Below, one piece after another: positions 2,381-10,236 of a stretch of DNA of 64,000 bases. The notes under the pieces were generated by a model, which saw nothing but the letters and a program-made list of their open reading frames with translations, did not search any database and was not told the origin of the DNA. Both the position numbers and the translations under genes were made by a program. How positions within the stretch are numbered: the stretch's first letter is position 1; each line of letters begins with the position of its first letter. This DNA comes from Alphaproteobacteria bacterium (GTDB taxonomy: Bacteria > Pseudomonadota > Alphaproteobacteria > Micropepsales > Micropepsaceae), in the NCBI GenBank assembly GCA_947474645.1, contig CANJJD010000002.1:102745-166744 (forward strand), read 5' to 3'.

Positions 2381-2998
2381 TTAACGCGCTCGCGCGGACT
2401 GTCCCAAAGCCTCCAGCTCAGTCATCACCCGCGCTATGTCATAAGCATAAATCAGCCTTTCCGAACGCATATCCTTGTAGCCAAAGGTGATGCCGACCAG
2501 GCTGCCCGAAGCGTCCACCACCGGGCCGCCGGAAAAACCGGGTCCGGCATTGCCGGCAAAGGTGAAATAGGCCGGGGCGGTGCAGCCAGGGCATCGCGTG
2601 ATCTCGCGCACCGTGCCATGGGCGACGCGCAGCTCGCGGTCGGCGCCCTGGCCATAGGCGGTGACGCTTTGTCCGATCACCGGCGCGACCGTCGGCGGCG
2701 CGGCCGTTCGGCCGGTGCGAAAAAACATCAAATCGTAATCCTGCCGCGTGCCGATCACGTTCTTGGGATTGATCAGATTGACGTTATGGGCGTTGGTGAC
2801 GGCAATGCCCGGCGCGATCACCACCGCCGCGCCCTCGGCGCTGTCCAGTCCCAGGTGCACCCGGCCATGCAGCGGCAGATAGGCCGCCGCGATGCCGGTT
2901 TCCGAGATTGCGGCAGCCGGCAGGCCCGATGAAGAGGCACAGCCGGAGACCGCCAGAAGAAGGAAAAAAGCGGCGAGACTAGAAGGGGATTTCGTCAT
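2381..2998 (-). CDS. Trypsin-like (S1) serine protease, predicted lipoprotein
   Basis: Lipobox LAVSG-C; TNAH (His), DYDL (Asp), GFSGGP (Ser) motifs. Start chosen at MTKSPS (2998), overlapping the 3' end of ssb by 20 nt. Confidence 0.8.
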
Positions 2999-3425
2999 CC
3001 ATCTCGTCGCGCTGGAAGCTGGCCGGGGCTTCGCCGGCGCCGCGGCCGCCACCCTCGCCGCCGGCGCCGCGGCTATCCAGCATTGTCAGCTCGCCGCGGA
3101 AATTCTGCAGCACCACTTCGGTCGAGTATTTCTCAGCGCCGTCCTTGTCGGTCCATTTGCGGGTCTGCAACTGGCCTTCGACATAAACCTTGGCGCCTTT
3201 CTTCAAATACTTCTCAGCCACATCGGCGAGGTTCTTGTTGAAGATCACCACCCGGTGCCACTCGGTCTTTTCCTTCTTCTCGCCGCTGGCCTTGTCGCGC
3301 CAGGTTTCAGAGGTGGCGATGGAAAGAGTGACCACCGGATCGCCGGACGTCATGCGGCGCACCTCCGGGTCCTTGCCCAGATTGCCCACCAAAATCACCT
3401 TGTTGACGCTACCCGCCATGATCAT
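2979..3425 (-). CDS. ssb: Single-stranded DNA-binding protein
   Basis: [19 protein letters not shown]...TEWHRVVIF...DDEIPF acidic tail. Confidence 0.98.
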
Positions 3426-3505
3426 TCTCCGTGTCCGGCCGCGACGTTAGACGAGACCTGCCTGCCCGCGCCATCGGAGCGGGGTTTATGTCTGTGTATA
3501 GCATC

Positions 3506-3520
3506 GTTCTCTATTTGTTC
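3506..3520. promoter_or_regulatory. Alphaproteobacterial LexA (SOS) box GTTC-N7-GTTC upstream of ssb
   Basis: GTTCTCTATTTGTTC is an exact match to the alpha LexA direct-repeat consensus. It overlaps a minus-strand TTGGAA-N17-TATACA promoter-like sequence facing ssb. Confidence 0.85.
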
Positions 3521-3573
3521 CAATAGCGTTGCTGCCCCTTTTCCCCGATAAGCAAGCTAGGCGGGTGAGGCGC

Positions 3574-5043
3574 ATGCCCTTCAATTCCTATCCCTATTTC
3601 CTGTTCCTGGCCGTCGCGGTACTGGGCTTTCGCCTGCTGGAAAGCCGCGCCCTCACCGGCCGTCGGATATTGCTGCTGCTGGCCTCTTACGCCTTCTATG
3701 CCTGGTGGCGGGCCGACTTCCTGTTGCTGCTGTGCGGCTCGACCCTGGTGAACTACACGCTGGGGCGGGAAATCGAGCAGCGCCGCGCCAAGGGCCAAGG
3801 CCGCCGCCCCATTCTGATTGCGGGCCTGGTGTTCAACCTCGGGCTGATCGCCGCTTTCAAATATGCCGGCCTGCTGACGGGCACCGCCAACCAGTTGTTC
3901 GGCATCGGGCTGCCGCTGCCCGACTTTTTCCTGCCGCTGGCGATCAGCTTCTTCACCTTCGAGCAGATCAGCTATCTGGTCGATGCCGATGCGGGCAAGA
4001 CGGCGCGTTACAGCCTGCTCGATTACGCCCTGTTCGTCGCCTATTTCCCGCATCTCATTGCGGGCCCCATCGTGCGCCACAACGATTTGATCCCGCAGTT
4101 CCACCAGATGCGATCGCGCAATGACGATCTGGCGGCTGGTGTGACCCTGTTCACCATCGGCCTGGCCAAGAAAACCCTGATCGCCGACAATCTGGCGCCC
4201 TTCGCCGACGCCATCTTCAATGCCGCCGGGCGCGGCATTGCTTTGGGGCCCACCGATAGCTGGCTGGGCATGCTGTTCTTCGCCTTCCAGATCTATTTCG
4301 ATTTCAGCGCCTATTCCGACATGGCGCTGGGCTCCTCGTTGATGCTGGGCATCCGCCTGCCGGTGAATTTCCATTCGCCCTACAAGGCGGCCAGCATCAT
4401 CGAGTTCTGGCGGCGCTGGCATATCTCGCTGTCGGCCTTCCTGCGCGACTATCTCTACATCCCGCTGGGCGGCAACCGGCAGGGTCGCGGGCGGCGCTAT
4501 CTCAATCTCTTCGTCACCATGCTGCTGGGCGGGCTATGGCATGGCGCAAGCTGGACCTTCATGCTGTGGGGCGGACTGCATGGCCTCTATCTGTCCATCA
4601 ATCACGCCTTCCGCCATGCCAGCAAAGGCGTAGCCGCCCCTGCCGCGCTGAAGCAGCCGCTTCACATCGCGTCCGTGGCGCTGACCTTCCTGGCCACCTC
4701 GCTGGCCTGGATCGTGTTCCGCAGCCCCGACCTCGCCTCAGCCCGCAACATGGCGGGCGGCCTTGTCGGCCTGGGCCATTCCGCCGTTGTGAGTTTTTCG
4801 CCCCTGGCGGCGGCCACGCTGCTGCTGTTGTTCGGTTTGGTCTGGTTCATGCCCAATTCCATGGAATTGATGTGGCGGCATGACCCAGCCCTGCCCTCGC
4901 CTTACGATAACCAGCCCGTGAAACCGGCGAAATTCCTGTCCTGGAAGCCCACGCGATGGAATGCCGCCGCCTATGGCCTGCTCTGCATCGTGGCGGTGCT
5001 GGCGCTGTCCAATCTCAAACCCTTCATCTACTTCCAGTTCTGA
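3574..5043 (+). CDS. MBOAT family O-acyltransferase (AlgI/DltB-like)
   Basis: [56 protein letters not shown] (catalytic His), C-terminal FIYFQF. GAGG RBS before ATG 3574. Confidence 0.93.
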   Translation: [489 protein letters not shown]

Positions 5044-6065
5044 TGGAAAAGACCCGCTACCCCGTCTGGTTTTTGGGCACGGTGCTTGCGGCCATCGCGG
5101 CGCTGGCCGCGTTCAACGCCTGGGCGGAGCATTTCATCCTGACCCATCCCGCCGGCGGCAGCGTGCAGACCCTGTCGGGCTTTGAGCGTGCCGTGAAACC
5201 CGCCTGGCTGGAAGCGACCCGGCCCGAACTTGTCTTTGTCGGTTCCAGCCGGGTGCGCGACGCCTTCGATCCAGTCTTGATTGATCCGGCGCTGAAGATC
5301 CGCAGCTTCAACTACGGCGCCTCCAGCATGTCGCCCTATGAGGCGCGCCGCCTGGTGCAGGATGCGTTGGCGCATCCTTCCGTGAAGACGGTGGTGGTGT
5401 CGCTGGATGCCTTTACCGGCAACGGCGGCGCCGGCGAGGCCCTGCCCAGCTTTGACGAAACCCGCCTGGCGGTGACGCCGGCCGGCGATCCCACACCGCG
5501 CCGCGGCTTGTGGCTGTTCACCACCCGTTATCTCAGTGGCGGCGCGCTGGGCATGAATGCGCTGGGCATTTATGCGCTGGCACGGTTGAAGCCTGGCGAG
5601 ACCGCCGCCGATCGCCCCGACATCTTCAACGCCTATAGCCACATGACCGAAGCGGTGATGCGGCGCGACCTGGCGTACCGCCGGGCGCGCAGCATGAGCA
5701 TGGGCCCGCGCGCGCGCGGCGAACTGGTCGCGATGCTGGCCGCGGCCTGCCGCGCGAGCGCCAGGCTGATCGTCTACTTCCCGCCCGATCACACCGCCAT
5801 TGTGCGGCAGTACCGGCAGAGTGATGCCGCAGGCTTCACCGCCTTCAAGAAAAACGTCGCGGCCGAGGTCGCGCGCGCAAATGCAAGCTGCCCGGCCCAG
5901 ACGGAGCTGCTGGACTTCATGCAGCCGAACGCCCTCACCACCGAAACGATGGTGAAGGGTTCAAGTCCGGATTATGTGGATCTGGTGCATATCCGCCCGC
6001 CCGCAGGCCTCTGGTTGTTACGCCAGATGGGGCTATTGCGGCAGGGGAGCGTGACCGGAAACTGA
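5043..6065 (+). CDS. Membrane-anchored SGNH/DltD/AlgJ-like acyl-transfer partner
   Basis: Start overlaps the MBOAT stop (TGATG). N-terminal TM helix, FVGSSR block-I-like motif, C-terminal DxxH (DLVH). Confidence 0.72.
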   Translation: MEKTRYPVWFLGTVLAAIAALAAFNAWAEHFILTHPAGGSVQTLSGFERAVKPAWLEATRPELVFVGSSRVRDAFDPVLIDPALKIRSFNYGASSMSPYEARRLVQDALAHPSVKTVVVSLDAFTGNGGAGEALPSFDETRLAVTPAGDPTPRRGLWLFTTRYLSGGALGMNALGIYALARLKPGETAADRPDIFNAYSHMTEAVMRRDLAYRRARSMSMGPRARGELVAMLAAACRASARLIVYFPPDHTAIVRQYRQSDAAGFTAFKKNVAAEVARANASCPAQTELLDFMQPNALTTETMVKGSSPDYVDLVHIRPPAGLWLLRQMGLLRQGSVTGN

Positions 6066-6067
6066 CC

Positions 6068-6325
6068 TCAGGTGGAGGTGGCCGGGGTGACAACGGGGCA
6101 ATGGGCCGCGTCGCACGCGGCGCTGCTGGAGCCGCTGATGGCGACCGCGACCGCAACCACGGCGATGGCGATGCCGCCGCCGACCAGCAGCAAATTGGTG
6201 CGCCGCTGGGCTTCCTGCACACCAGCGGGCTTGCCGGCGGTCAGGGCCCCCTCGGCCGCAAGGGCTTGGGAACCCATCGCCGCCGCCAGTGCCATTGCCG
6301 TCGCAGCCTTGCGCAAATTCGTCAT
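6068..6325 (-). CDS. Small secreted/membrane peptide, GKPAGV family copy 1 (85 aa)
   Basis: AGGGGA RBS; signal peptide ending ALA|AEG; second hydrophobic helix; clear paralogue at 11612-11878. Confidence 0.82.
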   Translation of the reverse strand: MTNLRKAATAMALAAAMGSQALAAEGALTAGKPAGVQEAQRRTNLLLVGGGIAIAVVAVAVAISGSSSAACDAAHCPVVTPATST

Positions 6326-6431
6326 CGTCAGTCCCCTGAAATCCGCCATGTGCGGTGTAAAAGGTTGTTCCTGCTGGCCAATCACGGGCCGTCTCAGCGC
6401 TATTAGTACGGATAATCGCGGGATTGCAAAT

Positions 6432-6460
6432 GAACAATCACGGCAAAATCATGATTGTTC
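6432..6460. promoter_or_regulatory. Inverted repeat GAACAATCA-N11-TGATTGTTC, candidate operator in the divergent promoter region
   Basis: Perfect 9-bp arms. An internal palindrome AATCATGATT lies at 6447-6456. Confidence 0.45.
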
Positions 6461-6471
6461 TCTTTTTGTTT
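6457..6471. promoter_or_regulatory. Probable LexA box (GTTC-N7-GTTT) upstream of the FkbM-uvrA unit
   Basis: GTTCTCTTTTTGTTT is 13/15 identical to the ssb box and lies ahead of the transcript carrying uvrA, a canonical SOS gene. Confidence 0.65.
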
Positions 6472-6493
6472 TCGATGGCTCCGCAAAAAGGCT

Positions 6494-7357
6494 ATGAACA
6501 GGCCCATGGACTTGCTGACCGAGATTCTCAATCCCAAACGACTCACCGCCATCGTGGATGTGGGCGCCAATCCCATCGACGGCGATCCGCCCTACAAGGC
6601 GATGCTGGCGGCGGGCCTGTGCGAGGTGACCGGCTTTGAGCCGCAAGCCCATGCGCTGGCGAAGCTCGAACAGAGGAAGGGTCCGCGCGAACGTTATCTA
6701 CCGTACGCTTTGGGCGACGGAACTTCGCGCACGCTCCATGTCTGCGAACTGGAAGGCATGACCAGTTTGCTGGAACCCGACCCCGCACATCTGGCGCTTT
6801 TCAATTTGTTTCCTATATGGGGACAAGTGAAACAGCAGATCCCCGTCACCACCAGGAAACTGGACGATGTCGCAGAGATCGCCGTGATGGATTTCCTGAA
6901 AATGGACGTCCAGGGCGGCGAGCGCGATGTGCTGGCGCATGCCACAGCAAGGCTGAAGGACGCGGTGGCGGTCCAGACCGAGGTTTCCTTTGTTCCCCTC
7001 TACAAGGACCAGCCGCCCTTTGGCGAAATCGACCTGATGTTGCGGGAACTCGGCTTTCTGCCCCATTGCGTCACCGGCACCAAGATTTGGCCGCTATCGC
7101 CCCTGGTGGTGGGCAATGAACCCAATCGCGGCATCCGCCAATTGCTGGAAACCGACATGGTCTATGTCCGCGACATCAGCAAGCCGGAAGCCATAAGCAC
7201 CGAGCAATGGAAGCATCTCGCCCTGGTGGCGCACCATTGCTATGGCTCCTACGATTTGGCGCTGAAGGCCATCGTCACCCTGATGGAACTGGGCACAGTG
7301 CCCAAGGGCGCCAACACGCGTTATCTCGCCGGCCTGCCCGCCAGAAAATCGAACTGA
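6494..7357 (+). CDS. FkbM family SAM-dependent methyltransferase
   Basis: VDVGAN (motif I), [20 protein letters not shown] motifs. Start at 6494 or 6506. Confidence 0.85.
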
Positions 7358-10236
7358 TGCTGAAGAACATTTCCATTCGCGGTGCCCGCGAGCACAATCT
7401 CAAGAATATTGATGTCGAGATTCCGCGCGACACCCTGACGGTGCTGACCGGCCTGTCGGGCTCGGGCAAGTCGTCCCTCGCCTTCGATACCATCTATGCC
7501 GAAGGCCAGCGCCGCTATGTCGAATCGCTGTCAGCTTACGCCCGCCAGTTCCTGGAGCTGATGCAGAAGCCCGACGTGGACCATATCGAGGGTCTGTCGC
7601 CAGCCATCTCCATCGAGCAGAAGACCACCTCCAAGAATCCGCGCTCCACCGTGGGCACGGTGACCGAGATCTACGATTACCTGCGCCTGCTGTTCGCCCG
7701 CGTCGGCGTGCCCTATTCGCCGGCCACCGGACTTCCCATCGAAAGCCAGACCGTCAGCCAGATGGCCGACCGGATTCTCGCTTTGCCCGAAGGCACGCGG
7801 CTTTACCTGCTGGCGCCCATCGTGCGCGGCCGCAAGGGCGAATACCGCAAGGAACTGGCGGAGCTGCAGAAGAAGGGCTTCCAGCGCGCCAAGGTGGACG
7901 GCAAGTTCTACGACATCGGCGCCACACCGGCGCTGGACAAGAAGTTCAAGCATGACATCGAGATCGTGGTGGACCGCATCGTGGTCAAACCCGACATCGG
8001 CAACCGCCTGCCCGATTCCATCGAGACGGCGCTGGGCTTGGCCGACGGGTTGCTGGTGGTGGAATTTGCCGACGAGAAGGAAAAAGACGGCAAGCCGCGC
8101 CAGATGATGCTGTCATCCAAGTTCGCCTGCCCGGTCTCGGGCTTCACCATCACCGAGATTGAGCCGCGGCTGTTCAGCTTCAACAACCCCCATGGCGCCT
8201 GCCCGGAATGCGACGGGCTGGGGGTGCAGAATTACTTCGACGAAGCGCTGGTCGTGCCGGACGAGAGTCTGACCTTAAAGAAGGGCGCCGTGGCGCCCTG
8301 GGCCAAGTCGTCCTCGCCCTATTACCTGCAGACGCTCGAGGCCCTGGCCCGCCACTACAAATTCTCCATGAACGATGCCTGGGAAGACCTGCCCAAGAAG
8401 GCGCGGGACGTGATCCTGCACGGATCGGGCGAAGAAGTGATCAAGTTCACCTATGACGACGGCATGCGCCGCTATGACACCAAGAAGGAATTCGAGGGCG
8501 TCATCCCCAACATGGACCGCCGCTATGGCGAGACCGACAGCGCCTGGGTGCAGGAGGAACTGGAGCGCTTCCAGTCCGAAAGCCCTTGCGAGGTCTGCAG
8601 CGGCTACCGGCTCAAGCCCGAAGCCCTGGCGGTGAAGATCGGCGCCTTGCATATCGGCGAAGTCTGCAGCCAGTCCATCCGCGACGCCGATGGCTGGTTC
8701 CGCGATATCGACAAGAAGCTGAACAAGCAACAGCAGGAAATCGCCGTCCGCATCCTGAAGGAAATTCGCGCCCGGCTGAAATTCCTCAACAATGTGGGCC
8801 TGGACTATCTCACCCTGGCGCGCGCCTCCGGCACGCTGTCGGGCGGAGAAAGCCAGCGCATCCGCCTGGCCTCCCAGATCGGTTCGGGCCTGACCGGCGT
8901 GCTTTATGTCCTGGACGAGCCGTCCATCGGCCTGCACCAGCGCGACAACGGCAAATTGCTGGAATCGCTCAAGGGCCTGCGCGACATGGGCAATACCGTG
9001 CTGGTGGTGGAGCATGACGAGGACGCCATCCGCCAGGCTGACCATGTCATCGACATGGGCCCGGGCGCCGGCGTGCATGGCGGCCACATTATCGCCCAGG
9101 GCACCCCGGCCGACATCATCGGCAACAAGAAAAGCCTCACCGGAAAATATCTCAGCGGCGCCGAAAACATCCCCATCCCGGCCCAGCGCCGCAAGGCGGT
9201 GCATAACCGCTGGCTGAAAGTGGTGGGCGCGCGCGGCAACAACCTCAAGAACGTCACCACCCAGATCCCGCTGGGCACCCTGACCTGCATCACCGGCGTG
9301 TCGGGCGGCGGCAAGTCCACCCTGACCATCGAGACCCTGTTCAAAGCTGCGGCCAAGAAACTAACCCAGGCCCGCGAACAGCCGGCGCCGCATGACCGCA
9401 TCGAGGGGCTGGAGTTCCTGGACAAGGTCATCGACATCGACCAGAGCCCGATCGGCCGCACCCCGCGCTCCAACCCGGCCACCTATACCGGCGCCTTCAC
9501 TCCGATTCGTGACTGGTTCGCCGAACTGCCGGAATCAAAAGCCCGCGGCTATGCGCCCGGCCGCTTCAGCTTCAACGTCAAGGGCGGACGCTGCGAAGCC
9601 TGCCAGGGCGACGGCGTCATCCAGATCGAGATGCACTTCCTGCCCGACGTCTATGTCCAATGCGATGTCTGCAAGGGCAAGCGCTACAATCGCGAAACTC
9701 TGGAAGTGAAGTTCCGCGACAATTCCATCGCCGATGTGCTGGACATGACCATCGAGGCCGGCGCCGAACTGTTCCGGGCGGTGCCCTCCATCGCCGAGAA
9801 GCTGGAGACCCTCAAGCGCGTGGGCCTGGGCTATATCTCCATCGGCCAGCAGGCCACCACCCTGTCAGGCGGCGAGGCCCAGCGCGTCAAGCTGTCCAAG
9901 GAATTGTCGCGCCGCGCCACCGGCCGCACGCTTTACATCCTGGACGAGCCCACCACGGGCCTGCATTTTCATGACGTCAAGAAGCTCTTGGAAGTGCTGC
10001 AGGAGCTGGTGGACCAGGGCAACACGGTGGTGGTGATCGAGCACAATCTGGAAGTCATCAAGATCGCAGACTGGCTGGTAGATCTGGGACCGGAGGGCGG
10101 CGATGACGGCGGCGAGATCGTGGGCAGCGGCACGCCGGAAGACGTGGCGAAGAACCCGCGCTCCTATACCGGCCAGTATCTCAAGCCGCTGCTCAAGAAC
10201 GCGGCCGCGCCAAAACGATTGAAGGCCGCGCAGTAA
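7357..10236 (+). CDS. uvrA: Excinuclease ABC subunit A
   Basis: [13 protein letters not shown], two Walker A motifs ([18 protein letters not shown]), LSGGE signatures, Zn-finger cysteines. ATG 7357 overlaps the FkbM TGA. Confidence 0.98.

Follow-up and report, generated by a model that had tools for sequence, protein, structure and literature searches.

A divided ssb–uvrA locus in Rhizomicrobium-like Alphaproteobacteria, with a LexA-type box ahead of each gene and a methyltransferase gene overlapping uvrA

The window analyzed here is a 64,000-nucleotide stretch of a genome labelled Alphaproteobacteria bacterium (G000:C2:102745-166744; genome 2.64 Mb, 64% GC), and its subject is the region that separates ssb from uvrA. 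Sequence reading, an open reading frame (ORF) scan and Pfam searches give the gene order as ssb (minus strand), an MBOAT gene, a partner ORF, an 85-aa ORF (minus strand), an FkbM gene and uvrA. The starts of ssb and uvrA lie 3,931 bp apart with four genes between them, in agreement with the distance of about 3.9 kb given in the preliminary description of the window. The window thus does not hold an adjacent, divergent ssb–uvrA pair with one operator in a short common spacer; it holds inserted genes between ssb and uvrA and a LexA-type site before each of the two (Table 1). We regard it as reasonably probable that LexA represses an FkbM–uvrA operon at the second of these sites, box 2, the first, box 1, lying inside the predicted ssb core promoter. 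This and all other functional statements on the locus are drawn from sequence and from comparison among genomes.

Table 1. Features of the ssb–uvrA region, in coordinates of the window
Feature	Position	Strand	Basis
ssb, 148 aa	2979..3425	-	Pfam SSB E=1.3e-38; syntenic in all relatives
Predicted ssb core promoter: -35 TTGGAA 3523-3518, 17-nt spacer, -10 TATACA 3500-3495	3495..3523	-	Alignment
Box 1, consensus alphaproteobacterial LexA box GTTCTCTATTTGTTC	3506..3520	+	Exact GTTC-N7-GTTC
MBOAT, DltB/AlgI-like O-acyltransferase, first gene of the inserted island	3574..5043	+	Pfam MBOAT E=1e-36
Partner ORF, 340 aa, start overlapping the MBOAT stop (ATGA)	5043..6065	+	ORF scan
Small ORF, 85 aa, in only some island genomes	6068..6325	-	ORF scan, relatives
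Conserved block GCAAATGAACAAT, after the palindromic -35-like TTGCAA (6424-6429)	6426..6438		94% column identity
Box 2, near-consensus LexA box GTTCTCTTTTTGTTT, final T for C	6457..6471	+	Matrices, conservation
Conserved block AAAGGCTATGAA, -10-like TATGAA	6487..6498	+	91% column identity
FkbM-family SAM methyltransferase, 283 aa	6506..7357	+	Pfam Methyltransf_21 and TIGR01444
Element B, invariant block CTGGCGCTTTTCAATTTGTTTCCTATATGG in FkbM codons 96-105	6791..6820	+	23-gene codon alignment
TGATG, FkbM stop overlapping the uvrA start	7355..7359	+	TGA 7355-7357 shares its A with ATG 7357-7359
uvrA, 959 aa	7357..10236	+	Pfam UvrA_DNA-bind, UvrA_inter, ABC_tran; relatives align from residue 1

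A scan of species-representative genomes returned 23 with an FkbM orthologue of at least 70% identity, labelled Rhizomicrobium sp., Alphaproteobacteria bacterium and similar. The two LexA-type boxes, their identity at 13 of 15 positions and the TGATG overlap, all reported in the preliminary description, are confirmed from the sequence. The boxes differ at positions 8 and 15, and box 2 reads GTTC-N7-GTTT, one mismatch from the direct-repeat consensus. Box 1 is upstream of both ssb and MBOAT, at 81 nt from the start of the former and 54 nt from that of the latter; box 2 lies 35 nt upstream of the FkbM start, which is placed at the ATG at 6506, where ATGGA is conserved in all 23 orthologues with the frame kept; the alternative starts TTG 6455 and ATG 6494 were rejected as out of frame in most orthologues. 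The assignment of the protein to the FkbM family is secure, with scores that exceed the curated cut-offs (PF05050, 71.6 bits versus 22.7; TIGR01444, 56.5 versus 37.7).

FkbM and uvrA have the layout of a coupled operon, since they share a strand, overlap, and have neither a terminator nor an operator between them. The overlap takes the form TGATG in 22 of the 23 genomes and TAATG in the remaining one. Within FkbM the coding strand has no terminator-like site, and element B, a weak match at 7.0 bits, is the only LexA-like site that reaches 7 bits; no LexA-like box other than box 2 was found between 6472 and 7357, and in the island genomes, i.e., those that carry the inserted genes, box 2 is the sole candidate operator for uvrA. 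The earlier proposal that FkbM may have been captured into the SOS regulon is borne out as far as the overlap in 23/23 genomes and the lack of another LexA-like box between FkbM and uvrA are concerned, with the control itself remaining a prediction.

The GTTC-N7-GTTC direct repeat is the established LexA motif of the Alphaproteobacteria (PMC9578287, PMC3323433), and uvrA belongs to the small conserved SOS core of the alpha- and beta-Proteobacteria (PMC3323433). In the window, the motif with at most one mismatch occurs 31 times against 34 expected, and because the bare motif is at chance frequency, matrix ranks and conservation were used instead. Exact matches number 45 in the genome and are mostly intragenic with GC-rich spacers; in the genuine boxes of the genus the spacer is rich in T (roughly GTTC-Y-Y-N-T-T-W-T-GTTC), a feature that the bare pattern does not capture. 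Matrix 1 was built from 33 ssb, uvrA, lexA, recA and imuA boxes of the genus, with the FkbM box excluded, and matrix 2 from 32 lexA, recA and imuA promoter sites of congeners, with no ssb or uvrA site among them. With matrix 1, box 1 is the top site of the genome and box 2, at 22.8 bits, ranks third, after box 1 and the imuA box and ahead of the box of lexA itself. With the independent matrix 2, box 1 ranks fourth (20.8 bits) and box 2 ranks 19th among 5.3 million positions (15.8 bits) despite the maximal penalty on its final T; at that rank, the expected number of chance matches in the spacer of ~170 nt upstream of FkbM is ~0.001.

Conservation points the same way. Box 2 is identical in 20 of the 23 genomes, the other three reading GTTCTCCTTTTGTTT, GTTCCCATTTTGTTT and GTTCTCTTTTTTTTA (degenerate), and column identity across the 23 genomes is 98.6% within the box versus 45-50% in its flanks of 15-18 nt, in species whose FkbM proteins are only 70-89% identical. 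That box 2 might be a functionless near-match, as the chance frequency of the one-mismatch motif in the window would allow, deserves next to no weight, being refuted by the ranks of 3 and 19 and by the conservation of the box between diverged flanks. The genome encodes lexA (C5:60555), and GTTCTACTTTAGTTC precedes lexA, GTTCATGTTATGTTC precedes imuA-imuB-dnaE2 and tandem boxes precede recA; conserved boxes with one mismatch also occur in core SOS promoters of the genus, which suggests that imperfect sites are in use, although in the lexA and recA promoters the mismatch lies in the first half-site.

Relatives of G000 bear on the origin of the arrangement. As anticipated in the preliminary description, the ancestral-type layout is found among congeners: in G019, G017 and G005, ssb and uvrA are divergent neighbors, and one perfect GTTC-N7-GTTC box lies 115-155 nt upstream of uvrA, and six other families of the class likewise keep ssb beside uvrA. 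Among the 14 non-island congeners with the uvrA upstream region in hand, 12 have a perfect box within ~150 nt of uvrA, in G006 two inserted ORFs separate uvrA from its box, which lies ~780 nt upstream, and G023 alone has no box; LexA control of uvrA is therefore taken to be the conserved state. The FkbM orthologue was present in G000 and only three more genomes when 24 congeners were sampled first, and FkbM homologues at 50-56% identity (Bradyrhizobium, Mycobacterium and others) show no linkage to uvrA, ssb or MBOAT. Where the contig suffices, island genomes share the order 611-aa ORF, trypsin-like protease, ssb, box, MBOAT, partner, box, FkbM and uvrA, and in a uvrA codon tree they form one clade (support 0.97), with G019 and G016 as its sister. 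At the level of sequence, the comparison establishes that ssb and uvrA were ancestrally divergent neighbors sharing one predicted alpha-type LexA operator, and that, within a Rhizomicrobium-like genus, one clade gained a putative envelope-modification block between them.

A decayed relic of the island, with ~620 nt between ssb and uvrA, occurs in G014 (L047, G014:C41 4370-5020, minus strand). Its first ~20 MBOAT codons are fused to a later MBOAT fragment, which is followed by box 2 in the form GTTCCCCTTTTGTTT, ~30 codons of the FkbM N-terminus, a fragment from the middle of FkbM and the TGATG junction; both LexA-type boxes are present and FkbM is a pseudogene. Since this genome nests within the island clade, the island appears to be ancestral to the clade and to have decayed once, leaving regulatory pieces behind; no second relic was found among 151 congeners. 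In G017 (L021), the spacer is of the ancestral type and homologous to that of G019, yet uvrA nests in the island clade (support 0.93-0.95), a conflict that may have arisen by recombination, through lateral replacement of the locus or from a chimeric metagenome-assembled genome (75% complete).

The preliminary description had further held that the insertion both split and duplicated the ancestral operator. The split stands, with an insertion confined to one clade and a box on each side of it, whereas the duplication is unproven: the two boxes share only the 15-mer, the flanks outside it are unrelated, and the similarity of their T-rich spacers is accounted for by the genus-wide preference of LexA. 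Three relatives hold GTTCTCTTTTTGTTC on the ssb side. A recent, independent insertion in G016 (L048, G016:C17 3850-4950) places a Methyltransf_23 gene, which occupies the former uvrA leader, between the perfect boxes GTTCCTGTTTTGTTC and GTTCCCATTATGTTC. Compared with the ancestral spacer, the ssb-side box of G016 gives z = 6.1 for its uvrA-side flank and z = 2.6 for its ssb-side flank, and the uvrA-side box shares ~20 nt, with z ~5 when the box is included and ~0 when it is masked. This pattern is compatible with a short duplication, without proving one.

Several observations weigh against control of uvrA by LexA at box 2. The final T is found in 0/32 of the sites of matrix 2 and in 1/33 of the boxes of matrix 1, so that the affinity of box 2 may be low, and the spacer of box 2, a stretch in which genuine LexA boxes vary, is frozen; a different or further constraint must operate on it. 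One island genome (L054) has a broken second half-site with the T-rich run kept. In G023, the spacer between uvrA and an acyltransferase gene is without any LexA-like site, the box having stayed with ssb, which indicates that the loss of such control can be tolerated. Between box 2 and the -10-like block ahead of FkbM there are 17 to 21 nt, depending on the genome, a consensus scan found no convincing -35/-10 pair upstream of FkbM, and element B, inside FkbM, could supply most of the transcription of uvrA.

The invariant spacer and non-consensus final T, the boxless uvrA of G023 and the T-rich run that outlived the half-site in L054 would also suit a box 2 conserved for a reason unrelated to LexA, for example as a T-rich promoter or UP element or as the site of another regulator, with uvrA outside the SOS regulon in this clade. 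We hold this to be quite improbable, as it would make a coincidence of a 14/15 match to a top-ranking LexA site at the very position expected of a uvrA operator; moreover, the natural variants in L061 and L066 have changed spacer bases and kept GTTC...GTTT, and the genome contains no further copy of such an element. We therefore prefer repression by LexA at box 2, and the dependence of uvrA on this box is suggested by the uvrA boxes of congeners, by the lack of any other site between box 2 and the end of FkbM and by the retention of box 2 in the G014 relic.

In the preferred mechanism, a promoter would be located between box 2 and the FkbM ATG, with the box at its -35 region or just upstream of it, and LexA bound to the box would occlude the -35 (on or beside the 3' half of the box), thereby repressing a bicistronic FkbM–uvrA transcript. 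Upon DNA damage, RecA-stimulated cleavage of LexA would induce FkbM and uvrA together, and uvrA would be translated through coupling at TGATG. The fixed final T would weaken box 2 relative to a consensus operator, which would allow a sizeable basal level of uvrA and early induction. As for the promoter itself, the block AAAGGYTATGA (6487-6497) sets a TATGAA-like hexamer 5-7 nt before the FkbM ATG in every genome, and no properly spaced Shine-Dalgarno sequence precedes FkbM in G000; TATGAA is a possible -10 of the FkbM promoter, which would give a leaderless or near-leaderless mRNA. A sigma-70 consensus scan of 2900-7500 returned no promoter and no excess of terminators, so that the hexamers named at this locus were assigned by hand; an Rfam scan of 2900-7600 gave nothing credible.

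The most conserved part of the locus is element B, whose codons (CTG GCG CTT TTC AAT TTG TTT CCT ATA TGG) are essentially invariant, synonymous sites included. It is the longest run of columns with at least 94% conservation in a 4.9-kb alignment that extends from ssb to uvrA+600, and neither ssb, the MBOAT motifs nor the Walker A region of uvrA has a run as long. The AT-ending codons CTT, AAT, TTG, TTT, CCT and ATA, rare in a genome of this GC content, are frozen in 23 species. Distant FkbM homologues unlinked to uvrA do not conserve the peptide encoded here, which argues for a constraint at the nucleotide level, peculiar to the clade in which FkbM is linked to uvrA. Element B includes a -10-like CTATAT (6813-6818), 16 nt after a weak -35, CTGGCG (6791-6796); CTATAT is the -10 consensus of alphaproteobacteria. 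The FkbM pseudogene of G014 keeps the CTGGCG and CCTATATGG parts with their spacing and has an altered middle, the surviving pieces being CATCTGGCGCTTTTCAAT and TTCCTATATGG, ~105 nt from uvrA. No copy of element B exists elsewhere in the genome, and its reading as a repeated motif or regulon site was dropped on this ground. Its reading as a LexA site was rejected (only 7.0 and 4.4 bits), and inspection by eye found its spacing or sequence unfit for a sigma-54, IHF, CtrA or DnaA site. Element B may be an internal promoter or another cis-element embedded in the coding sequence.

Two tentative proposals follow for uvrA. In one, element B would add a second, LexA-independent uvrA promoter; this possibility, which we rate well below LexA repression itself, is compatible with LexA control at box 2. 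In the other, of similarly doubtful standing and overlapping with the preferred reading, uvrA would be transcribed mainly from element B, and box 2 would control FkbM alone or only the inducible part of uvrA expression. The length of the invariant run, the frozen rare codons, the variability of the segment in FkbM homologues away from uvrA and its retention in the G014 pseudogene at a distance typical of a normal leader all argue for a promoter there, but its -35 is poor and the promoter scan found nothing, the leader would be ~530 nt in intact genomes, a simple promoter does not explain the frozen spacer, and retention in a single relic genome could be due to chance; element B might alternatively act as an antisense promoter, bind another regulator or cause a translational pause. 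The preliminary description had left uvrA without a leader of its own. The reading that uvrA lacks signals of its own is weakened by element B, with its CTATAT retained in G014; that description had also named a uvrA promoter inside FkbM as evidence against its proposal, and element B would be such a promoter only if confirmed.

On the ssb side, box 1 appears to fill the spacer of the predicted ssb promoter and to overlap its -35, which is the classical position of a repressor site, and LexA bound there would repress ssb. Both GTTC halves of box 1 are retained in 23/24 relatives with a freely variable spacer, and in 19/19 aligned ssb–MBOAT spacers TTCCAATAGC directly after the box is invariant and a TA 6 nt before the box is conserved; the -10 hexamer, TATACA in G000, reads TATGGG in most relatives. 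A conserved CTTTTCC-CCGATAAG block lies between box 1 and the MBOAT start. In the MBOAT direction from box 1, no hexamer pair with good spacing could be assigned, so that LexA control of MBOAT is possible but unsupported. The suggestion that MBOAT had been captured into the SOS regulon is thus not substantiated, box 1 sitting in the conserved ssb promoter spacer, and control of MBOAT through box 1 is a conjecture. About 10 nt from the ssb-side box (window 3485-3495), most island genomes carry a DnaA-box-like TTATCCAC, in place of which G000 and its closest relative, L072, have TTATGTCTGT.

Regarding the remaining genes of the island, the MBOAT protein scores 161 bits against NCBIfam LTA_dltB, which is under the cut-off of that model. 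A family search with the 340-aa partner ORF gave no match; it adjoins MBOAT in all island genomes, with 70-86% amino-acid identity. In L061 and L070 the partner gene extends to ~60 nt from the FkbM start and the small ORF is apparently absent. The GCAAATGAACAAT block is missing in these two genomes, where the partner gene reaches box 2, and it probably represents signals for the small ORF. The longer conserved TTGCAAATGAACAAT (6424-6438), likewise missing in L061 and L070, lies upstream of this minus-strand ORF.

A division of uvrA from ssb with LexA sites on both sides is already known. In some Vibrionaceae, a phage insertion has split the uvrA–ssb pair and independent LexA sites are preserved for both genes (Sanchez-Alberola et al. 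2012, PMC3323433), which the authors read as selection for SOS control of both (PMC3323433). The present locus resembles this direct precedent in the genes, in the regulator, in the insertion between the genes and in the LexA sites on both sides; it differs in having the alpha-type direct repeat rather than CTGT-N8-ACAG, envelope-modification genes rather than a phage, a passenger gene that stands between operator and uvrA and is fused to the latter by the stop/start overlap, and an arrangement stable across at least 23 species. What is new here is the alpha-type setting, the passenger methyltransferase gene fused between operator and uvrA in a stable arrangement, and the frozen intragenic element. 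In Sinorhizobium meliloti, the divergent uvrA and ssb promoters are reportedly under GAAC-N7-GAAC (= GTTC-N7-GTTC) control (Tapias and Barbe 1999, Mol Gen Genet 262:121, a paper cited in PMC1839093). That pair resembles the one in the congeners G019, G017 and G005, and the window differs from it in the separation of 3.9 kb, the two boxes and the four genes between.

For Caulobacter crescentus, the SOS operator is given as GTTC-N7-GTTC (da Rocha et al. 2008, as cited in PMC9578287). G000 shares this type of operator, with boxes at lexA, recA, imuA-imuB-dnaE2 and uvrA; the last base of box 2 departs from that consensus. To our knowledge, no FkbM or MBOAT gene has been reported in the Caulobacter crescentus SOS regulon. 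With respect to the FkbM family (PF05050/TIGR01444), the domain of the protein matches, and homologues elsewhere are unlinked to uvrA, ssb and MBOAT.

Envelope-glycan genes often recur beside the uvrA operator in this genus. An AT3-SGNH (OafA-type) O-acyltransferase gene stands divergent from uvrA, in the place of ssb, in six congeners, G003, G004, G010, G013, G018 and G023 (loci L050, L051, L023 and L028-L030 belong to G023, G004, G003, G013, G010 and G018, respectively). In G006 (L024, G006:C238 700-1500), a GT25-like gene ends just upstream of a perfect box. Beyond that box come two small ORFs, of 110 and 121 aa, whose end is 2 nt short of the uvrA start; this is a second and unrelated case of passengers between operator and uvrA. 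In G016 the gene at this place is the Methyltransf_23 gene. The ssb–uvrA gap looks like a permissive landing site. That the repeated capture of envelope genes was itself selected, with LexA deliberately coupling surface acylation and methylation to DNA damage, FkbM being a true SOS gene and the 30 nt frozen to house a second uvrA promoter, seems to us unlikely; if it were true, the coupling could serve, for example, to alter phage receptors or the tolerance of desiccation and UV while the SOS response is active. That surface modification is tied to DNA damage, as proposed in the preliminary description, is speculation.

The general picture of SOS regulation is unchanged by this locus. It illustrates how a core SOS operon may admit passenger genes without losing its regulation, with an operator at the new 5' end and the passenger fused to uvrA, in an arrangement stable in at least 23 species and with one lineage in which the passenger decays while regulatory pieces persist. 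Should LexA indeed control FkbM (and perhaps MBOAT), the SOS response of these little-studied soil alphaproteobacteria would extend to envelope modification. Element B offers a clean candidate for a regulatory element embedded in coding sequence.

Elsewhere in the SOS regulon, the lexA promoter (C5:60462-60502) has, beside its perfect box, another that is conserved and contains one mismatch, GTACCGGCTTTGTTC (most congeners have GTTTCGGATTTGTTC), and the recA promoter (C48:8999-9093) holds three sites, one of which is a conserved GTAC/GTGC-N7-GTTC. Further high-scoring LexA-type sites outside the window lie at C7:44681, C34:17188, C33:12851 and C5:87509; one of the four sits ~215 nt upstream of dnaE, another immediately downstream of parC and a third ahead of a 782-aa ORF.

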